The notes beneath the pieces were generated by a model. That model was not told the DNA's origin. It searched no databases and worked only from the letters and a program-made list of their open reading frames with translations. Of a stretch of 64,000 nucleotides of DNA, positions 22,728-54,060 are shown one piece after another. Source of the stretch: Naegleria gruberi. Its lineage: Eukaryota. Position 1 is the first letter of the stretch. Each line of letters begins with the position of its first letter. The stretch is from the NCBI GenBank assembly GCA_000004985.1, contig GG738858.1; one strand, written 5' to 3'. Position numbers and translations under genes: made by a program.

Positions 22728-23027
22728 TGTGTTGTTTCGTATGGTTTTGTTTGGGTTTTTTCAAAGTGGAGTAATGATATTAAAGGGTCAAAAAACCAAA
22801 TTCTTTTTTAATAAGAATGCAATAAACTAAAGCTTTCGTCTGGAGAATTTAAACAATTTTCACAGATTTTGAGAATTGTAAGGAGGCCGCTTTTGTAATT
22901 CCTCCAGATTTTTAGATGGATTTTTGTTGAGTGGAAATATTGAGTTGTTACTAGAGGCATGAAAGTTCTACAAATGGAGTTCCATGATTATTAAATAAGT
23001 TGTAGAAACTGTATTCGAAATTCTAAG

Positions 23028-24497
23028 TTTGGACAAAAAGTGTTTCGTGCAAGTTACATGGTCATAAATTAAACCTAACTGGGATTCATACGGATTCCAT
23101 GGTATTGAAATTTCCTTAATGGGAAGTCTACAGTTTGTTTGTCAACTATGAGTACGGACTGCATGACAAGGTCAACTTACAATTGGTTCCTCAACACTTT
23201 TAAACAAATTCCATTTTATTAATCACAAAGCTTACAATCTAACATGTTTCAGTGCACAAAATAATCTCTGTCAGAAAAATAAGCTTACTGGTACAGTTAT
23301 ATCTGCATACCAAATCAATTAATTTGGACGGTTGATATAGAACACAATTATGAGAGAACCAATAGAAAGTATGAATATTTGCAAGACCAGATACACAAAT
23401 CCATTTAGAATTTTAAAAAGATATTTTCTGTTTATCCGACTACACACCAATAAATACGAAAATAATGAGCTTTATTCTACACGCGCAATATATGATGTAA
23501 ACAACTTTGACATCATACCCATTCCACTTGAACTGTTTCAAAGAAATTTCATGAAATGCATACAGTCTTTTAAGAATTCAAGTTTGACGCCTCCTGTCCC
23601 TTTACCAATTTTAACCTGTAATTTGCACAAACCTAAATGGTACTTTTTGAGATAATTAAAAATGTGTCCTTGGATACGGTTAGAAAATAGGAAACCCATG
23701 CCATTTCATTTTCATGAATACTATAAAGGTTTTTTATAATGGAGTTTTAAAAGTAATTCAAGTTTGGACAAAAAGTGTTTCGTGTAAGTTACATGATCAT
23801 AAATTAAACCTAACTGGGATTCACACGGATTCCATGGTATTGAAATTTCCTTACTGGGAAGTCTACTGTTTGTTTGTCAACTGAGTACGGACTGCATGAC
23901 AAGGTCAACTTACAATTGGTTCCTCAACAATTTTAAACAAATTCCATTTTATTAATCACATAGCTTACAATCTAACATGTTTCAGTGCACAAAATAATCT
24001 CTGTCAGAAAAAAAAGCTTACTGGTACAGTTATATCTGCATACCAAATCAATTAATTTGGACGGTTGATATAGAACACAATTATGAGAGAACCAATAGAA
24101 AGTATGAATATTTGCAAGACCAGATACACAAATCCATTTAGAATTTTAAAAAGATATTTTCTGTTTATCCGACTACACACCAATAAATACGAAAATAATG
24201 AGCTTTATTCTACACGTGCCATATATGATGTAAACAACTTTGACATCATACCCATTCCACTTGAACTGTTTCAAAGAAATTTCATGAAATGCATACAGTC
24301 TTTTAAGAATTCAAGTTTGACGCCTCCTGTCCCTTTACCAATTTTAACCTGTAATTTGCACAAACCTAAATGGTACTTTTTGAGATAATTAAAAATGTGT
24401 CCTTGGATACGGTTAGAAAATAGGAAACCCATGCCATTTCATTTTCATGAATACTATAAAGGTTTTTTATAATGGAGTTTTAAAAGTAATTCAAGTT
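23028..24497. repeat. Two tandem, about 97% identical copies of a 733-bp unit (copy 1 about 23028-23760, copy 2 about 23761-24497), each containing an identical 101-aa ORF (23350-23655 and 24083-24388)
   Basis: Direct read-through identity of the two units. Differences are limited to a few substitutions and small indels. The period comes from the ORF offset (24083-23350=733). Confidence 0.9.
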
Positions 24498-24539
24498 TAC
24501 AACCGGATGACATCCAGGTTACAATAAAATTAAAAAAAA

Positions 24540-25288: not shown

Positions 25289-25377
25289 CAGAGCAGCTCA
25301 GTTTGAAAATAAATCAATAGAAACCAGATTATTGAAACAGGTAATCTAATTCAATAGTAAGATTTTAAGGAAGTGCA

Positions 25378-25495
25378 TGGCTACGGCCATATCACGATGA
25401 AAGCACCTCATCCCGTCCGATTTGAGAAGTTAAGCATCGTCGAGCCACATCAGTACTGAGGTTGGAGACAACTTGGGAACCTGTGGTGCTGTAGT
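25378..25495 (+). rRNA. 5S ribosomal RNA gene, copy 1, followed by a T5 run
   Basis: GGCTACGGCCATATCACGATGAAAGCACCTCATCCCGTCCGATTTGAGAAGTTAAGC..GGGAACCTGTGGTGCTGTAGTC matches conserved 5S blocks (GCCATA.CAC, ATCCCGTCCGAT.TG, GAAGTTAAGC, GGGAA.ACC.GGTGCTGTAG). T-run Pol III terminator directly 3'. Confidence 0.9.
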
Positions 25496-25528
25496 CTTTT
25501 TACTTCATAGTCAATAGTCAACCAATAA

Positions 25529-34769: not shown

Positions 34770-36563
34770 TTATCTATGCATCAGATTGAGTGTTTCTTCT
34801 ACAATTAGATTTGGACTGGTAAGAGCCATATCAAAATCTGCATCAATTATCTTCCATGCCATTTTGGTGGAATTGTAGTAGGTAGCTAAATCTTGGTGCA
34901 TTGATAAAAAGGCGTTTGCACGTTCTTGTTGATAAATAAGAAAATCATTGCATAGAGCTGTTCCAAAAGAAAGGTAATTGTCCTCGCAAGATCCATAAAG
35001 TAATTTCTTTGATGTGAGTATACTGACTGGAATAATTGTTGAATTTGAAGAATGGAATTGCTGTCTCTTTGCTCTAATATTTATAATATTGCCTGTCGTA
35101 TTTTTCATGTCATCAAGCTCACCCCAAACAGCATTATTGAACTTGTTGATATTTGTTGTATGTTGGTTGTATTTCAGTAAAAGTTGAACAGCTGTTGAAT
35201 TTGGGAAAGATGAAAAATACGTCTTCCAGCCATTCAAGTAATATCGTTCATGGATTGTTCCTAAGGTGGAAGGGAGTTTTTGATAGAAATAATTTGAGAA
35301 ATATCTAGTAAATCCAATAGGTGTTACGAATCTAATGGTATTGGCCATATAGGCTTTCTCTTCTAACATATTGCTTATTTGAGTATCAGTTAAATTATAC
35401 ACACTACCAAGATGATATGTGTCTTGCTTTTCATGAGATGGATGCAACAAGATAACACCCCTCAAGAGTTTTCTGTGATATTCCATGACTGTTCTGGCTG
35501 TGAATGAGGCACTTGAATGTGAAATCAAAATGAATGGTGTTTTGAAAGATGCCTCTTTCACAAGTGCAATCATTTCATTCATTGTTGTATTGCTCAAATC
35601 TCTTGGAAATGGTCCCGAATCGCTGAATCCATATCCTGCTCTCTCAATCACACAAGCTCTCATTCCCTTCTTTGCCAACAGAGTGATTAAACTCTTCATA
35701 TAAGCATATGGTGATGCAACTCCAATATCTGAATCGAGAAGCACTGCATCTTCACTTTCAGAATCTCCTTCACAATACATGTGCATATTCAGTGTTTGAG
35801 CACTCGAGGGTTTAATGCTGTACATGGTTCCAGGGACTTTATATTCATCCTGTGTTATCGAAACTGATTGGACTGTAAACATGATGAATAAGGCACAAAC
35901 TAAAGCCATAAATGTATAGACTAGAAGCTTGATGACTGTTGTAACTCGACAACAAATTCTGGTTCTGAAAAAGCTTTCTTCTCCATACCATTTTTCTTCC
36001 TTCAAATCGAATATTATTGTATTTGATTTTCTAAATTTCTTGAATTGATGATATGCAATTACAAGATATGAAATTGGAGAGATGACAAAAAACAGGCAAA
36101 GCCAACCAGAAAGTCTCTCTCTATTCTCACTATAAAGTCCATAACAAACCCAATTAATCAAACTAGAGATGAAAATAAGTACTCCCCAAAATATTCTCGC
36201 AAAGAGAGCCATGCTATATCCGTCAATATTAATTTGACGAGTTAAATTATCCTTAATAAGTCCTTTCTTTTCAATAAAAGATACAATCCTCTTATACCAT
36301 CTCAATAAAAATAAAGGTCCGAATAGATCAAAAATGAATGTTAATGAAAAAACCATTTGAAATGCACTTGTCCACACAACAGTAGTAGGAGAACCTGCAG
36401 TAAAATATCCTATTTGATCAGAATTACTATTATCCATTGAAATTCCAAACACTACTATGGAGGATAATGCACAAAATAATATTGTTAGAATTGCAACTTT
36501 GTAAATTGCTCCAATTATTCCCTTCTTGGTCTTTTTAGTCTTCTTCTTTGTTGGCTTTTCCAA
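34770..36563 (-). CDS. Membrane-anchored alpha/beta-hydrolase-fold protein, paralog A (N-terminal multi-TM region plus AB-hydrolase-1 domain), intronless
   Basis: ERAGYGFSDSG (the DxRGhGxS-type block) and nucleophile elbow ISHSSAS. Five N-terminal TM helices. Confidence 0.65.
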   Translation of the reverse strand: MEKPTKKKTKKTKKGIIGAIYKVAILTILFCALSSIVVFGISMDNSNSDQIGYFTAGSPTTVVWTSAFQMVFSLTFIFDLFGPLFLLRWYKRIVSFIEKKGLIKDNLTRQINIDGYSMALFARIFWGVLIFISSLINWVCYGLYSENRERLSGWLCLFFVISPISYLVIAYHQFKKFRKSNTIIFDLKEEKWYGEESFFRTRICCRVTTVIKLLVYTFMALVCALFIMFTVQSVSITQDEYKVPGTMYSIKPSSAQTLNMHMYCEGDSESEDAVLLDSDIGVASPYAYMKSLITLLAKKGMRACVIERAGYGFSDSGPFPRDLSNTTMNEMIALVKEASFKTPFILISHSSASFTARTVMEYHRKLLRGVILLHPSHEKQDTYHLGSVYNLTDTQISNMLEEKAYMANTIRFVTPIGFTRYFSNYFYQKLPSTLGTIHERYYLNGWKTYFSSFPNSTAVQLLLKYNQHTTNINKFNNAVWGELDDMKNTTGNIINIRAKRQQFHSSNSTIIPVSILTSKKLLYGSCEDNYLSFGTALCNDFLIYQQERANAFLSMHQDLATYYNSTKMAWKIIDADFDMALTSPNLIVEETLNLMHR

Positions 36564-37701: not shown

Positions 37702-39570
37702 TCAAAAATCTTGAAGAAAAGGAAGTATTAGTTCGGGATGATGTAAAGCAATATCATAATCCGAGGGGATGTGTTTCCAGGAGACGGAGTAGAGCTTGGG
37801 TTGATTTTTGTAAAAATTGAAGAGATCTTGATGGAGGAGTTGGATGATGAAAGATCTTTGGAATTGTTTTTGGAGGAAATCTTGGCAAATTGATGAACCT
37901 TCTGGAAAGAAATTTTGGCTACAATTTCCATTGAGAAGATAGCTTGATGTGAGGATGATTAGAGGGAGTGGTTTTGTTGAATTGGACATTGTTTGTGGAT
38001 TTTCTCTATTATGGATGATCTGCTTATTATTGAATGGGATGGATTTCAACTCACTCCAAACAGTGTTCGTAAATTTGTTGCTATTGAGAACACTATCGTA
38101 AATTTTCAATAATGTTGAATTAGTGAAAGATGGATAGAAGTACTTTTTCACACCATTCATATAATATCTATCATACCAATTATCCTTTTCATTTTCCTCC
38201 AATAATCCAAAAACTCGAAATATTCCAATAGGAACCAGCATTCTAATGGTATTCACATGGCTTACTTCAGTATTGTAGTGTTCCTCTACTGTTTCATTCT
38301 TGACAAATGTTCTCAGTAATGATTCTTCTTGCTTTTCATGAGATGGATGCAACAAGATAACACCCCTCAAGAGTTTTCTGTGATATTCCATGACTGTTCT
38401 GGCTGTGAATGAGGCACTTGAATGTGAAATCAAAATGAATGGTGTTTTGAAAGATGCCTCTTTCACAAGTGCAATCATTTCATTCATTGTTGTATTGCTC
38501 AAATCTCTTGGAAATGGTCCCGAATCGCTGAATCCATATCCTGCTCTCTCAATCACACAAGCTCTCATTCCCTTCTTTGCCAACAGAGTGATTAAACTCT
38601 TCATATAAGCATATGGTGATGCAACTCCAATATCTGAATCGAGAAGCACTGCATCTTCACTTTCAGAATCTCCCTCACAATATAGATGAAGGTTAATTGT
38701 CTGTGTGTCTTTGGAATATAAGGGCACCTGAACTGTTTGACCTGGCATGCTTTGAATTCCTGCCAAGATAGATACAGCCTGAATAACACAACCTATTAGT
38801 ACCACAATTAGTAGAGTTGTAAATATTAACACTGAAATATGGGCTGCTTTCATGAAGTATTTCATTATGGTTGATCTTTTAGAATACAAAAACAGATAGA
38901 TTTCATGGCAATTTTGTGTCTTTTTGTGCTTATGCTTTCCAAATTTTTCCTCATAGTATTCCTTGACATACCTTCCTTTAACAAACTGGTAATATTTTGT
39001 TAACAAATCAAAGATTACATTACTTACTTGATATACAATCACTAGAATATATGCAATCATTGGAATTAATCCAGAGAATGCAAACCAACCAGTCAATCTA
39101 TCTCTACTCTCCTTTACAGTATATGAAATCCAAATAATGGAAAGCAATAGCATTGTTACAATGGTAATTAATAATTTGATAATTAACATCAGAATAGAAG
39201 TATCCCATGATAGATACATGTAATTTGTATAATTAGTAACAAAAATCTTTTTCCTTTTAATACTAAATCCCATCATACAGCCCATAATTGGTATGAAATA
39301 TGAATCAATAATTAATAATCCAATGTAAAATAGCATTACAATAGAAATCCAAAATATTGTAACTGGTGATCCACTTGTATAAAATCCACTATTCGACACT
39401 ACATTAGCAGCACTAACAGACATTGTAACTATATATGAAATCAAAAAGAATATCAGTGTTATAGTGCTAATTTTGTACAGTGAATGAAAAATCTTCTCCA
39501 CATGTTTGAGTTCACTCGGCTTGGAAACAATTTTTGGACTTGTACTAATTGGAGAACCTTGCATTTCCAT
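37702..39570 (-). CDS. Membrane-anchored alpha/beta-hydrolase-fold protein, paralog B (tandem duplicate of 34770-36563)
   Basis: Same architecture as paralog A. A central 117-aa block is identical to paralog A. The flanking regions are divergent. Confidence 0.65.
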   Translation of the reverse strand: MEMQGSPISTSPKIVSKPSELKHVEKIFHSLYKISTITLIFFLISYIVTMSVSAANVVSNSGFYTSGSPVTIFWISIVMLFYIGLLIIDSYFIPIMGCMMGFSIKRKKIFVTNYTNYMYLSWDTSILMLIIKLLITIVTMLLLSIIWISYTVKESRDRLTGWFAFSGLIPMIAYILVIVYQVSNVIFDLLTKYYQFVKGRYVKEYYEEKFGKHKHKKTQNCHEIYLFLYSKRSTIMKYFMKAAHISVLIFTTLLIVVLIGCVIQAVSILAGIQSMPGQTVQVPLYSKDTQTINLHLYCEGDSESEDAVLLDSDIGVASPYAYMKSLITLLAKKGMRACVIERAGYGFSDSGPFPRDLSNTTMNEMIALVKEASFKTPFILISHSSASFTARTVMEYHRKLLRGVILLHPSHEKQEESLLRTFVKNETVEEHYNTEVSHVNTIRMLVPIGIFRVFGLLEENEKDNWYDRYYMNGVKKYFYPSFTNSTLLKIYDSVLNSNKFTNTVWSELKSIPFNNKQIIHNRENPQTMSNSTKPLPLIILTSSYLLNGNCSQNFFPEGSSICQDFLQKQFQRSFIIQLLHQDLFNFYKNQPKLYSVSWKHIPSDYDIALHHPELILPFLQDF

Positions 39571-47443: not shown

Positions 47444-47559
47444 TTTCGATAACGAGTGAAACAAGAGTTTCAATAAATATAGCCCGAGTTTAATGTGAAT
47501 AAAATTTGCTTTCAAAGATTTTCAATATTCTTTATATTTATTGTGTTAAGGTAATGAAT

Positions 47560-47677
47560 GGCTACGGCCATATCACGATGAATGCACCTCATCCCGTCCG
47601 ATTTGAGAAGTTAAGCATCGTCGAGCCACATCAGTACTGAGGTTGGAGACAACTTGGGAACCTGTGGTGCTGTAGTC
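47560..47677 (+). rRNA. 5S ribosomal RNA gene, copy 2 (one substitution relative to copy 1: GAATGC vs GAAAGC), followed by T5
   Basis: 118-nt match to copy 1. Preceded by about 75 bp that is shared with copy 3. Confidence 0.9.
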
Positions 47678-47790
47678 TTTTTATCACACATTAATTTCGA
47701 TAAATAGATGATTCACAGCACCAAAAAAAAGGAAATTCAACTTTTTCAACACTCATTGGAATTGCTGATTTACAGAGCTCAACAGCCAAT

Positions 47791-48927
47791 TTAGAAACAC
47801 TTTCTATGAACAAAACCTGGACCAGCCTCCTCATATTCCTCTTTCGATATCCACATCTGCTGAAAGGTTGCAAGACTCGCGAGGATACTACCTCCAATCC
47901 AAACTGAATACTTTCTTTCAGGTGGGGCGACAACCTTTATCTTCATTGAGGCTGGTGCCAAAGCAGTCAATTCCTTGGTCATTCTTTCAGCAATACCTTC
48001 GAACATGGTATTACCACCTGACAAGACAACATTTCCATACAATTCCTTTCTAATGTCAATGTCACATTTACCAATTGAGTTGAATGCCATTTCATGAACA
48101 CCAGCAGCCTCCATTTTTTCAACCAAATTAGGTTGGAATAAAACTTCTGGACATCTGAATCGTTCGTTACCAATTGTTATCACATTACCATCTGGTAATT
48201 CGTATAACTTTTCCACGGAGGATGATTCAGCAGCAACTTTCATTTCAGCTTCGAAATCTAAAGCAATATAACAGAGCTTTTCCTTAATACCTCTGACAAC
48301 TTCTCTTTCAGCAGTAGTATTGAATGAGTAACCTCTTTCCATCAAAATATTCATCAAACAATCAGTCAAGTCACGACCAGCCAAATCCAATCTCAAAATG
48401 GCATGTGGCAAGGCATAACCTTCATAAATTGGAACAGTGTGTGAAACACCATCACCAGAATCCAAAACTATACCAGTACTTCTACCAGAAGCATACAATG
48501 ACAAGACAGCTTGAATGGAAACATACATGGCCGGAACTGAGAAGGTTTCAAACATGATTTGACTCATCTTTTCTCTATTTGGCTTTGGATTAAAAGGAGC
48601 TTCAGTCAACAAGACTGGATGTTCCTCAGGAGCAACACATAATTCATTGTAGAAGGTGTGATGCCAGATCTTTTCCATATCATCCCAATTAGTAACAATA
48701 CCGTGCTCAATTGGATACCTTAAAGTCAAGACACCACACTTGTATTGAGCTTCATCACCAACATAGGCATCCTTACCAAACATTCCAATCATGATTGACT
48801 TTTGCTTTGGTCTAGCAACAATTGAGGGAAAGACAGCTCTTGGAGCATCATCACCAGCAAAACCAGCTTTACACATACCAGAACCGTTGTCAACAACGAG
48901 AGTTTGAACGTCTTCATAGAAAGACAT
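47791..48927 (-). CDS. Actin (about 80% identical to conventional actin), intronless. The likely start is the Met of [17 protein letters not shown] at 48927; the ORF extends 21 codons further upstream to 48990.
   Basis: [103 protein letters not shown], terminal VHRKCF. A-rich context AAAAAAAACAAATCAAATG precedes the internal Met. Confidence 0.9.
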
Positions 48928-50218: not shown

Positions 50219-50405
50219 TTTTTTTTAATTTATTTTTACAACAGTTTCAATCTTTGTAACCAAACTGTGCAAGAAACACTGGAATTTGAGAGTTTTTAGT
50301 ATTCTTTACAATATAGGTCCAGCCTTGTTTAATATATAACATGAATAAATTTTGCTTTCGGAGATTTTCAATATTCTTTATATTCATTGTATTAAGGTAA
50401 TGAAT

Positions 50406-50523
50406 GGCTACGGCCATATCACGATGAAAGCACCTCATCCCGTCCGATTTGAGAAGTTAAGCATCGTCGAGCCACATCAGTACTGAGGTTGGAGACAACT
50501 TGGGAACCTGTGGTGCTGTAGTC
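50406..50523 (+). rRNA. 5S ribosomal RNA gene, copy 3 (identical to copy 1), followed by T5
   Basis: 118/118 identity with 25378-25495. Shares about 75 bp of upstream sequence with copy 2. Confidence 0.9.
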
Positions 50524-50704
50524 TTTTTAATTAAGTTTTAAGACACATGAATCTTTAAAGTTGTTCATGTAGTCTTTTTGAGGAGAATTTTACTCCCTGT
50601 TCAAAGTATTAACATTTGATATTTGGGCATTTAATTAAAGTAGTACCACAACATCTTTCTCGGCCAATTGGCTTTGATCGAGTGAAGTTTCTGTTCTTTT
50701 CAGT

Positions 50705-51094
50705 TTAATAGCTGAAAGCAGCCCAAGGGTTGCCTCCTCTCAATCTCAATACTAAATGCACAGTTGAGTCCTTTTGAAGATTGTAATCATTAATGGTTCT
50801 GCCATCTTCCAATTGTTTTCCTGCATAAATCAATCGTTGTTGATCTGAAGGAATACCTTCTTTATCAAATATCTTTTGTTTCATATTCTCAACAGTATCA
50901 CTCGATTCCATTTCAATTGTAATTGTCTTTCCAGTTAAGGTTTTTACTTGTTTTCCAGCAAAGATGAGTCTTTGTTGATCTGGTGAAATTCCTTCCTTTT
51001 CTTGAACTTTTCTTTTCACATTTTCAATTGAATCATTAGATTCAACTTCCAAAGTGATTGTTCTACCAATGAGTGTCTTGACGAATAATTGCAT
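50705..51094 (-). pseudogene. Degenerate ubiquitin-like gene: Ub(1-49) fused in frame to Ub(5-76) plus an 8-aa tail, with multiple substitutions relative to the near-invariant ubiquitin sequence
   Basis: [49 protein letters not shown] | [80 protein letters not shown]. Canonical ubiquitin differs at 15 or more positions. Confidence 0.6.
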
Positions 51095-51096
51095 TA

Positions 51097-52477
51097 TGTT
51101 TGTTGTTTTTTTTTCTTATTGTTTTTCTTTGAATTCAAAGCATTTCTTTGCATTTTATTCTTGTAAACCTCCATTCCAATAAGATTTGGTTGAAATAATA
51201 TCTCAGTAGTTTTGAATCTTTCATTCCCAAGTGAAATTACATTTCCATCTGGCAATTCTAGACCGTGGGAGGTGAGAAGGATTGACAAATATTTTAAAAA
51301 AAAATTAAGAAGTCACTCAAAAAACAATTTGTTAAAGTCGAGCCGAAGGTTTATTGGACCAAGAGTGAGACAGTGTGTTCAAAGTATCAATTACCACTTG
51401 TTCTTCTAGAAACAAGTACTTCTGGGTTCTTGTACATGAACCTTCGCTTTAATGTACCAACAATTTCAAGTAAATGGGCAGGCACTTATCTAGATGATGT
51501 TTTGGTGAGGTGAATGTAGTAATGGCTGGTGAGGAAGGAAGCAAAGGGAGAACTCTCCTCATGGTGGCTTCTCAAGGTAGCATGCTGAAGGTGGGAATAC
51601 CAACCAATATACCTATTTAGCAGGGTGATGATGAAATCATGATGAGTAATTGTTGTTTGTTGTTTTTTTTTGTTGAATATTTAACGGTCAGAACAGACAA
51701 CTTTCAGCGGTTATTGGTTGGCGCGAAATTACCGTGATGTAACATTTTTTAGCTCACCTCCCTCGGTCTAGGCAATTCATATAAACTTTCTTTCGCTGTT
51801 TCTGCCAAAAAATTACTGGCAACATAACCAGTTTTTTCCTTCATATCCCTGACTAGTTCAGTTTCACCCATCGTGCTGAAATTATATCCTCGTTCCATTA
51901 ACATTTTCTTCAAATAATCTGTCAGGTCTTTGCCTCCTAATTCCAATCTTTTGGTGGCATGTGACAGGGCATATCCTTCATAAACAGGTACTGAATTAGT
52001 GACGCCATCACCTGATTCCAATACTACACCTGTCATTCTACCATTTGCAAATATTGACATGGCACATTGATTTGCCAAACACAAACCTCTCACCTTAAAA
52101 CTTTCAAACATGATTTGTGTCATTTTCACTTTCACATCCTTTGAATTTAGTGGCATTTCCATCAGTAATACTTCATGCTCCTCAGGAGCAACTCTTAACT
52201 CATTGTAAAATGTATGATGCCATATCTTTTCCATATGATACCAATCTGAAATTAATCCACGATCAATTGGATATTTGTAAACATTAATACCCCTCCTACA
52301 CAATGCATAATCTCCAACGTAAGTTTCGATAGAGCCCATTGAAAGGAGGAAGGGTGCTACTTTTCGATGTGAAGTTACTGTGGGAAAGACTGCTCGTGGA
52401 GCATAATCACCAGAAAAACCAGCTTTCATTTGAGAGGAACCATTATCAATGATGAGTGGTGGATTTTCATCAGTCAT
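51097..52477 (-). pseudogene. Truncated divergent actin paralog interrupted by a 512-bp MITE-like insertion. The coding parts are 51771-52477 and 51097-51258; the stop TAA overlaps the ATG of the downstream ubiquitin-like ORF as TAATG.
   Basis: [76 protein letters not shown] | insertion | [28 protein letters not shown], then a basic tail. Lacks about 100 C-terminal actin residues. Confidence 0.7.
51259..51770. mobile_element. Non-autonomous DNA transposon (MITE-like), 512 bp, with 18-bp terminal inverted repeats (TAGACCGTGGGAGGTGAG .. CTCACCTCCCTCGGTCTA, 17/18 match) and an exact 8-bp target site duplication GGCAATTC at 51251-51258 and 51771-51778
   Basis: TIR and TSD read directly from the sequence. 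Removing the element and one TSD copy restores the in-frame actin sequence ..[18 protein letters not shown]... No ORF of significance inside. Confidence 0.8.
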
Positions 52478-52575: not shown

Positions 52576-52646
52576 CTCGAACGCCGGGAATTGAACCCGG
52601 GTCGCCAGAGTGACAGTCTGGAATGCTACCACTATACCACGCCCGA
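52576..52646 (-). tRNA. tRNA-Asp (anticodon GUC), 71 nt
   Basis: Minus-strand read TCGGGCG TG GTA TAGTGGTAG CAT TCCAGA CTGTCAC TCTGG CGA CCCGG GTTCAAT TCCCGG CGTTCGA G. Anticodon loop CUGUCAC. Acceptor stem closes with two G-U pairs. Confidence 0.85.
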
Positions 52647-52779: not shown

Positions 52780-54060
52780 GTGGAAACTTCTCTATTTGTT
52801 TCAGATGTGCATTTTCGAAAATGCATCTTTTTTTTCAAATATGAATCACAAATGGACAAAGTTGATGGAAACACAACCAAAAAAATGGATCCACAACTAA
52901 CGTTCAAGGCATACAGCAAGATTGAAAATCATCATCAGGAGAGTTTCGTTTCAAAGTTATTGGAAAAGGAAACTGAAGATTCGGATAAGAAATTGGAATG
53001 GGTTTGCTTGGAGAAAGTGCATGGTAGCAATTTCAGCTTTATTGTTGTTCCTAAAGAAGGATCACAAGATAAAGTTGAAGTATTGAAAGCAAATCGTACC
53101 AATGTTCTTACCATATTAAGTAATTTCTTTGTGGAAGCTCAAAAAGAAGTTTACGAAAGATATTACAAGAGTTGTGTTAAATTATTCGAAATTATTTCTC
53201 AAAATGCAGAAAAATTCAAACGAAAGACTATGGAAACTGAAAGTGAAATTACAAAAATTCACATATTTGGTGAATTATTTGGTGGATACTTTCCAAAATT
53301 GAAAAATGATCAAGATTCGAATGGTATTCGTAAAGCACACATTCAAAAAGGTGTTTACTATTGTCCACATTATGATTTTTACGTATTTGATGTGGCAGTG
53401 ACATTTGGCGACCAAGATACTTGGTTACTTTTCGATGAGGCAGATCCAATTCTTGAAGAAGCAGGATTTAGAGTTAGAGCTAAACCACTTTTTAGAGGTT
53501 CATTGAAGGAATGTTTGGATTTTGATGTGGAAATTAACACGATAATTCCACAAACTTTTTATTCTGACATTTTGACAGAAAATGATATTTTATTTAAGGA
53601 AAAGGAAAATATTTGTGAAGGAGTGGTGATTAAACCTGCTAATGGTACTGTATTTGTCGGATCGAGGGCAATTATTAAGAAGAAGAATTCAAAATTTACT
53701 GAAGTCAATCCTGCCAAAGATAAATCTAAACGAATGAAGAAACAGGAAAAATCTGTGGATCAAGACGAACAAGAAATGATTTCTAATGTGTGGAATGAAA
53801 TTGAGCGATATTTGAATAATAATCGTCTTGATAATGTCGTTTCCAAAGTTGGAAATATTACTAGAGAAAATCTTTCACTTGTTTTGAAGAATTTTGTGAA
53901 CGATGCCATTGAGGATTATGATAAAGATCAACAAGAATTGGGAGAAGAAGGAGCTACCCTATCATCCCTTCCAGTCAACATTCAAAAATCAATCAAGAAG
54001 AAATTGGGATCCACCTGTCAAGCAATTCTTCTAAAATACATGAACGAAAACAAACAATAA
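52780..54060 (+). CDS. ATP-dependent RNA ligase of the Rnl2 family (nucleotidyltransferase motifs I, III, IV, V), intronless, 426 aa
   Basis: Motif I EKVHGSN (KxHGxN lysine-adenylate site). Motif III IHIFGELFGGYFP. Motif IV CEGVVIKPANG. Motif V AIIKKKNSKF. The true start may be the internal Met (MDKVDG) at about 52852. Confidence 0.75.
   Translation: METSLFVSDVHFRKCIFFFKYESQMDKVDGNTTKKMDPQLTFKAYSKIENHHQESFVSKLLEKETEDSDKKLEWVCLEKVHGSNFSFIVVPKEGSQDKVEVLKANRTNVLTILSNFFVEAQKEVYERYYKSCVKLFEIISQNAEKFKRKTMETESEITKIHIFGELFGGYFPKLKNDQDSNGIRKAHIQKGVYYCPHYDFYVFDVAVTFGDQDTWLLFDEADPILEEAGFRVRAKPLFRGSLKECLDFDVEINTIIPQTFYSDILTENDILFKEKENICEGVVIKPANGTVFVGSRAIIKKKNSKFTEVNPAKDKSKRMKKQEKSVDQDEQEMISNVWNEIERYLNNNRLDNVVSKVGNITRENLSLVLKNFVNDAIEDYDKDQQELGEEGATLSSLPVNIQKSIKKKLGSTCQAILLKYMNENKQ

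Follow-up and report, generated by a model that had tools for sequence, protein, structure and literature searches.

A 512-bp segment interrupting an actin-paralog fragment of Naegleria gruberi: a probable insertion of a short non-autonomous cut-and-paste transposon

What is the 512-bp segment that separates the two parts of an actin-like reading frame in the amoeboflagellate Naegleria gruberi, and how did it get there? The segment occupies positions 51259-51770 of a 64,000-nt stretch of contig GG738858.1 (assembly GCA_000004985.1), which is termed the window in the following and to which all coordinates refer. A preliminary description, made from the letters of this stretch, had interpreted it as a MITE-like DNA transposon sitting precisely within the frame of an actin paralog. 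In our analysis, the segment is very probably a single insertion of a short non-autonomous class II cut-and-paste transposon into the nuclear genome of N. gruberi NEG-M. The window has a GC content of 34% and contains three 5S rRNA genes, one U2 snRNA gene, and two tRNA genes. Its open reading frames (ORFs) are long, free of introns, and written in the standard genetic code, and nine of them are identical to N. gruberi reference proteins, all from one scaffold of 782,252 bp. A Trichomonas origin, at first suspected from the actin sequence, was dismissed in view of these nine proteins and of the closest relative of the host ORF. An eliminated sequence or a scrambled actin gene of a ciliate was ruled out on the basis of these long standard-code ORFs and of the identity of the proteins to the N. 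gruberi reference.

The element is bounded by 18-nt terminal inverted repeats, TAGACCGTGGGAGGTGAG at the left end (51259-51276, plus strand; detected by an inverted-repeat search and an 18-mer scan) and CTCACCTCCCTCGGTCTA at the right end (51753-51770, minus strand; reverse complement TAGACCGAGGGAGGTGAG), which differ at one of 18 positions. Each inverted end directly abuts a copy of the 8-bp sequence GGCAATTC, the left one being located at 51251-51258 and the right one, found by a direct-repeat search, at 51771-51778. The two copies are identical at eight of eight positions and represent a target-site duplication; on the coding (minus) strand the left copy reads GAATTGCC, which corresponds to E-L-P(1-2). 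The 18-bp termini with a single mismatch and the exact flanking duplication agree in coordinates and sequence with those given in the preliminary description. When the 18-mer was sought with up to three mismatches, only two sites were found in the 64 kb, compared to 0.01 expected from shuffled sequences. We also scanned for the complete structure, defined as inverted arms of 18 nt that differ by at most three mismatches, lie 60-5000 bp apart, and are directly bordered on the outside by a perfect 8-bp direct repeat. The only match in the window was the element at 51259-51770, with its one mismatch, and 100 first-order Markov simulations of the window yielded two cases altogether (~0.02 per window); the structure is therefore considered as real and not as a chance arrangement. 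Since C51258 is complementary to G51771, the inverted ends can alternatively be extended to 19 nt (CTAG..), which shortens the duplication to 6 bp (GCAATT). Both parses lead to the identical pre-insertion site, and the one with the 8-bp duplication is preferred as the more parsimonious.

If the element and one copy of GGCAATTC are excised, the host frame is rejoined in frame and becomes colinear both with NAEGRDRAFT_29917 (P0002), an intact actin paralog of 368 amino acids which is the closest relative of the host ORF, and with a full-length actin gene of the window. In a tblastn comparison of P0002 with the window, residues 1-236 aligned to positions 52477-51770 and residues 234-264 to positions 51258-51166. 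As required of a target-site duplication, ELP, the tripeptide for which GAATTGCC(A) codes, is found to the left as well as to the right of the element. P0002 itself is continuous across ..YELPDGNV.., and the full-length actin gene at 47791-48927, 3.5 kb away, holds the uninterrupted site TACGAATTACCAGATGGT, to be compared with the reconstructed site TATGAATTGCCAGATGGA (codons TAC GAA TTA CCA GAT GGT in the full-length gene and TAT GAA TTG CCA GAT GGA in the reconstructed host). The preliminary description had maintained that removal of the element plus one duplication copy restores the actin sequence expected at this position, and had proposed to compare orthologous or allelic actin-paralog loci for an empty site: the restored sequence matches P0002 as well as the actin DNA within the window, and the site is uninterrupted in NAEGRDRAFT_29917 and in the actin gene at 47791-48927. 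Judged from these empty sites, which are those of paralogs and not of alleles of the host locus, the interpretation of the segment as an insertion appears secure. A finding named beforehand as speaking against mobility, namely that the termini belong to a larger inverted duplication of the host gene, was not made. Beyond 19 nt the termini are no longer inverted copies of each other, and the sequence between them lacks similarity to actin or to the rest of the window, so that the termini are not part of such a duplication.

The host itself is less complete than had been thought. The 5' part of the actin-paralog fragment (51771-52477, minus strand) comprises codons 1-236 and ends with ..SLYELP; the 3' part (51166-51258, minus strand) matches P0002 residues 234-264 at 30 of 31 positions. 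Behind it, the interrupted frame continues into a tail of 23 unrelated, lysine-rich codons (51094-51165, minus strand), and its TAA stop and the ATG of a chimeric ubiquitin-like ORF (50705-51094, minus strand) overlap; it is this junction that truncates the actin copy. Homology to actin ends at codon 264 of 368 (at about 51166), and no counterpart of P0002 residues 265-368 was found at the host locus when P0002 was compared with the window by tblastn; the host is therefore a 3'-truncated actin gene fragment. Thus, of the original claim, the precise interruption of an actin-paralog reading frame stands, whereas the frame concerned is not that of an intact gene. Because of this truncation, the target of the insertion was probably a gene copy already dead, or at least one that is incomplete as an actin gene today. 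The host ORF (51749-52477, minus strand) corresponds to the annotated NAEGRDRAFT_65595 (EFC46665.1; D2V980), a "predicted protein" of 242 amino acids whose last seven codons (PRPREVS) and stop codon are derived from the right inverted end of the element. The annotation of NAEGRDRAFT_65595/D2V980 should accordingly be changed to that of an actin-paralog fragment with a C-terminus and stop contributed by the end of the presumed transposon.

The interior of the element, with a GC content of 38.9% compared to 34% in the window, has no coding capacity. Its longest open frame comprises 71 codons. A query made of the concatenated ORFs of all six frames, intended to detect gene calls inside sibling copies, gave no match at E<=10 among 5.8 billion proteins. 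When the 71-codon frame was compared with 1.84 billion representatives in a full HMMER search, five matches were obtained whose scores were sums of weak tandem-repeat matches; as they belong to unrelated tandem-repeat families (Ig, C-type lectin, PKD-like), they were judged spurious. The absence of a transposase ORF from the element, as originally proposed, was confirmed in that its longest frame is devoid of real protein homologs, and no transposase gene was found among the 30 ORFs of the window. Rfam reported SNORD113 alone (17 bits, E=1.8), which was dismissed as noise. Within positions 379-416 of the element, 20 of 21 nt agree with sequence upstream of the ubiquitin ORF; this resemblance was likewise discarded, as it concerns a T-rich low-complexity tract that is common in the genome. 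The single-stranded fold of the element is more stable than those of shuffled sequences (z = -3.7), mainly due to pairing of the inverted ends and of A/T runs. Five copies of the tetranucleotide CGGT/ACCG are present in the element (9.8 per kb), an approximately 10-fold enrichment over the 0.9 per kb of the window. Three of these motifs are subterminal, being located close to the right end with a spacing of 23 nt (51685, 51708, and 51731; span 51685-51734), and one further copy is located in each inverted end (51262 and 51764); the left end is otherwise poor in the motif. From their arrangement, these motifs are possible candidates for subterminal repeats bound by a transposase. With its size of 512 bp (below ~800 bp), its lack of coding sequence, its inverted ends, and its target-site duplication, the element corresponds to a MITE in size and structure; a MITE in the full sense would in addition have many homogeneous copies in its genome.

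From the anatomy of the element we infer an integration mediated by a transposase and a mobilisation in trans. A transposase supplied in trans would recognise the element by its 18-nt inverted ends, with probable additional binding to the subterminal CGGT-type motifs, excise the element from its donor site, and join its 3' ends to a target cut with an 8-bp stagger, the repair of the resulting gaps yielding the duplication of GGCAATTC. The target would have been codons 234-236 (E-L-P) of the divergent actin paralog that today is a 3'-truncated fragment, and the insertion would terminate the annotated ORF seven codons into the element. The near-identity of the inverted ends and the perfect duplication suggest that this event was fairly recent. 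The insertion is of textbook quality yet mechanistically ordinary and reveals nothing new in mechanism. Its practical value is mainly one of annotation. In addition, it would indicate fairly recent activity of at least one cut-and-paste transposon in N. gruberi, in whose genome very few transposons have been recognised, and its inverted ends provide a handle for tracing the family and its transposase.

A recently active transposase would usually be expected to have left sibling copies. Within the 64-kb window, no second copy of the element and no further inverted end was found. Scans with the inverted end revealed no copy in IMG/VR, where five mutually related contigs (~50% GC) showed a one-sided 23-nt match, and none in the JGI/ENA metagenomes, where ten one-sided matches were located on contigs with 43-69% GC. 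In GTDB (596 Gb of prokaryote genomes), 11 single 18-mer matches were obtained versus ~35 expected by a rough estimate. All these one-sided matches are treated as chance, and BLASTN of the element against the PLSDB plasmids gave no match. The negative outcome is weak since the collections scanned exclude the remaining ~41 Mb of the N. gruberi genome. The element might nevertheless be an orphan, i.e., a true transposon insertion that persists as a single- or very low-copy relic and whose source is extinct in this species or reached it by horizontal transfer. Apart from the lack of further copies in the window and in the scanned collections, this would be in line with the scarcity of recognisable transposon DNA in N. 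gruberi, which amounts to 0.28% of the genome in one survey (bioRxiv 10.64898/2026.06.24.734286), most of the repeats being unclassified and only a small fraction classifiable (PMC12344493). We consider a relic of this kind unlikely, because the part of the genome in which siblings would have to be sought lies outside these collections and because a single mismatch between the inverted ends together with a perfect duplication argues for recency and hence for a recently active transposase. A literature search found no paper describing the element at 51259-51770 or hAT elements in Naegleria; the element may already be catalogued in Repbase.

Readings that deny mobility altogether fare much worse. 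Filler DNA of a double-strand break, a larger inverted duplication, an assembly artefact, or a contaminating prokaryotic IS element or MITE could be invoked for the sole reason that further copies are lacking. Such origins are hardly conceivable in view of the combination of inverted ends and duplication, which is expected only ~0.02 times per window even when three mismatches are tolerated, of the short extent of the inverted repeat and the non-actin interior, of flanks made up of genuine N. gruberi genes that lie on a scaffold of 782 kb, and of the prokaryote and plasmid collections, which gave nothing beyond chance 18-mers. More specific is the suggestion that the element is an intron which is spliced out, leaving the host frame not truly interrupted. 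Huff, Zilberman and Roy reportedly showed in 2016 that the introners of Micromonas and Aureococcus are short non-autonomous DNA transposons, which are said to land in coding sequence, to carry splice signals in their ends, and to be spliced out exactly. Ds1-type elements are partly spliced from transcripts. In the element described here, both inverted ends hold AG|GTGAG 13 nt from the tip, so that a consensus 5' splice site is on offer whichever strand is transcribed, the element end ..TCTA forms a TAG| acceptor with the G that follows here, and 14 cryptic GT/GC-AG combinations would preserve the frame with small indels. However, no GT/GC-AG pair at the locus removes exactly 520 nt, i.e., the element plus one duplication, which distinguishes it from introners, and the inverted-end donor combined with the terminal TAG acceptor leaves +20 nt and hence a frameshift. 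Moreover, in the public gene model the element is not spliced out but supplies the stop, and the host copy is truncated regardless. The intron reading was rejected on the first two of these grounds and is regarded as extremely improbable. Little more can be granted to the far-reaching idea that the nearly transposon-free N. gruberi harbours a non-autonomous family which was recently active and is not yet catalogued, with the element as the first of its members to be described; the AG|GTGAG ends of this family could allow partial splicing in either orientation, and it might be an intermediate toward intron-generating transposons in a deep-branching eukaryote; we consider this very improbable.

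For the transposon insertion favoured here, the assignment to a superfamily can only be tentative. The leading candidate, at somewhat less than even odds, is hAT, as suggested by a duplication of 8 bp, inverted ends of 18 nt, and a tip reading TAGAC, and the clustered CGGT motifs also count toward this as yet unproven guess. The terminal motif of hAT elements is 5'-YARNG, with which the tip TAGAC agrees at four of five positions, the fifth base being C and not G. According to its definition, hAT comprises elements with 8-bp duplications and inverted ends of 5-27 bp (PMC3517528), ranges that include both values found here, and the layout of CGGT/ACCG near the right end resembles that of the subterminal repeats which hAT transposases bind (PMC10368747). 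The target GGCAATTC/GAATTGCC, which is one site compared with statistical consensuses, fits neither nTnnnnAn (Ac family) nor nnnTAnnn (Buster family) (PMC10368747, PMC3517528). The designation "hAT- or P-like" in the preliminary description has the 8-bp duplication as its sole basis, and the target departs from both hAT consensuses. In view of the deviating base in the tip, the divergent target, and the lack of a known partner transposase, hAT remains unproven.

Mutator is one possible alternative, as are P, Merlin, Zisupton, and Novosib-type elements. In Mutator, the inverted ends are usually longer and the duplications measure 9-11 bp, rarely 8 bp, and an element with an 8-bp duplication and 18-nt inverted ends would be atypical among them. 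An origin outside hAT and P, i.e., from Mutator/MuDR, Merlin, Zisupton, or Novosib (8- or 8-9-bp duplications), or from a family with 6-bp duplications if the alternative parse allowed by C51258 and G51771 were correct, is a possibility to be taken seriously, if a doubtful one. It would accord with the deviating tip and target (PMC10368747, PMC3517528) and with the documentation of full-length MuDRF with 9-bp duplications in N. gruberi (PMC3164196). That DNA transposons occur in this organism, with Harbinger and MuDRF entered in Repbase (PMC3164196) and Kolobok also documented (PMC9587614), supports the transposon reading in general. For N. lovaniensis, a sister species, EnSpm and piggyBac are listed among the repeats but no hAT (PMC6125883), which speaks against hAT. 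Against an origin outside hAT and P, an 8-bp duplication combined with inverted ends of less than 30 nt that start with T-A-G is most typical of hAT (PMC3517528 and general knowledge of the superfamily), and the usual dimensions of Mutator termini and duplications mentioned above differ from those observed.

Several known systems resemble the element in part. Mar and Vege, hAT-derived MITEs of Drosophila willistoni, are AT-rich, 610 or 884 bp in length, and possess inverted ends of 11-12 bp (PMC3517528). They share with the element short inverted ends, 8-bp duplications, the lack of coding sequence, and a frequent location in or near genes, and they too were first placed in hAT on the length of duplication and inverted ends alone (PMC3517528). 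Unlike the element, Mar is represented by dozens of copies, has the target consensus nnnTAnnn and a reconstructed full-length partner, and the tips differ (TAGAC in the element versus CAG(G/A)G in Mar and Vege) (PMC3517528). The Ds1-type elements of the maize Ac/Ds system (~400 bp) likewise generate 8-bp duplications and insert into exons, and Ds1 has little in common with the autonomous element beyond short inverted ends and subterminal motifs (PMC3260210). They differ from the element in belonging to another kingdom, in showing no sequence similarity to it, and in having the Ac transposase as a known partner (PMC3260210). Hermes, a hAT element with imperfect inverted ends of 17 bp, 8-bp duplications, and asymmetric subterminal repeats, comes close in architecture, and its short subterminal repeats are bound by the BED domain (PMC10368747). 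Hermes differs in its motif, AAG(T/C), and in its target, nTnnnnAn (PMC10368747), the element having CGGT/ACCG as candidate motif and GGCAATTC as target. MuDRF is, like the element, a DNA transposon with inverted repeats from N. gruberi and is listed in Repbase; it differs by its 9-bp duplications and by encoding a transposase, the comparison being one of descriptions and not of termini (PMC3164196).

Some further features of the window and of related loci were noted in the course of the analysis. The third member of the divergent actin subfamily, P0028 (NAEGRDRAFT_44350), is encoded outside the window, and its gene model lacks 25 residues (SNF..SLGNE) which span exactly the site homologous to that of the insertion; an inserted or deleted stretch at this locus may have been taken for an intron in the model. 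The three 5S rRNA genes are dispersed (25310-25502, 47491-47683, and 50337-50529) and form conserved units of 193 nt that are 81-96% identical. Two of them flank actin genes, and together with the U2 gene and a tRNA-Asp gene (52576-52646) they make the region from 47 to 53 kb a cluster of small-RNA genes and gene fragments. The U2 snRNA gene (50651-50773, plus strand) is antisense to the last 69 nt of the ubiquitin-like NAEGRDRAFT_32234 (50705-51094, minus strand), which is chimeric in that its first ubiquitin unit stops at ..IFAGKQ and passes directly into another unit at ..VKTLTGK; behind LRLRGG it ends in NPWAAFSY, which is antisense U2 read as protein.

Duplications of other kinds are present elsewhere in the window. 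Two tandem paralogs with an alpha/beta-hydrolase fold (34770-36563 and 37702-39570) are 43% identical overall and share a 100% identical core of ~117 amino acids (at least 300 nt; 35422-35721 = 38327-38626), for which recent gene conversion or a collapse of the assembly could be responsible. A non-coding unit of ~740 nt is duplicated head-to-tail at 23019-23765 and 23755-24498 with 98.3% identity; this duplication (23019-24498) is absent from the TRF output because its period exceeds 500. Beside the tRNA-Asp gene, the ORF at 52852-54060 (NAEGRDRAFT_47786) encodes a T4 Rnl2-like RNA ligase with RNA_ligase and T4_Rnl2_C domains.
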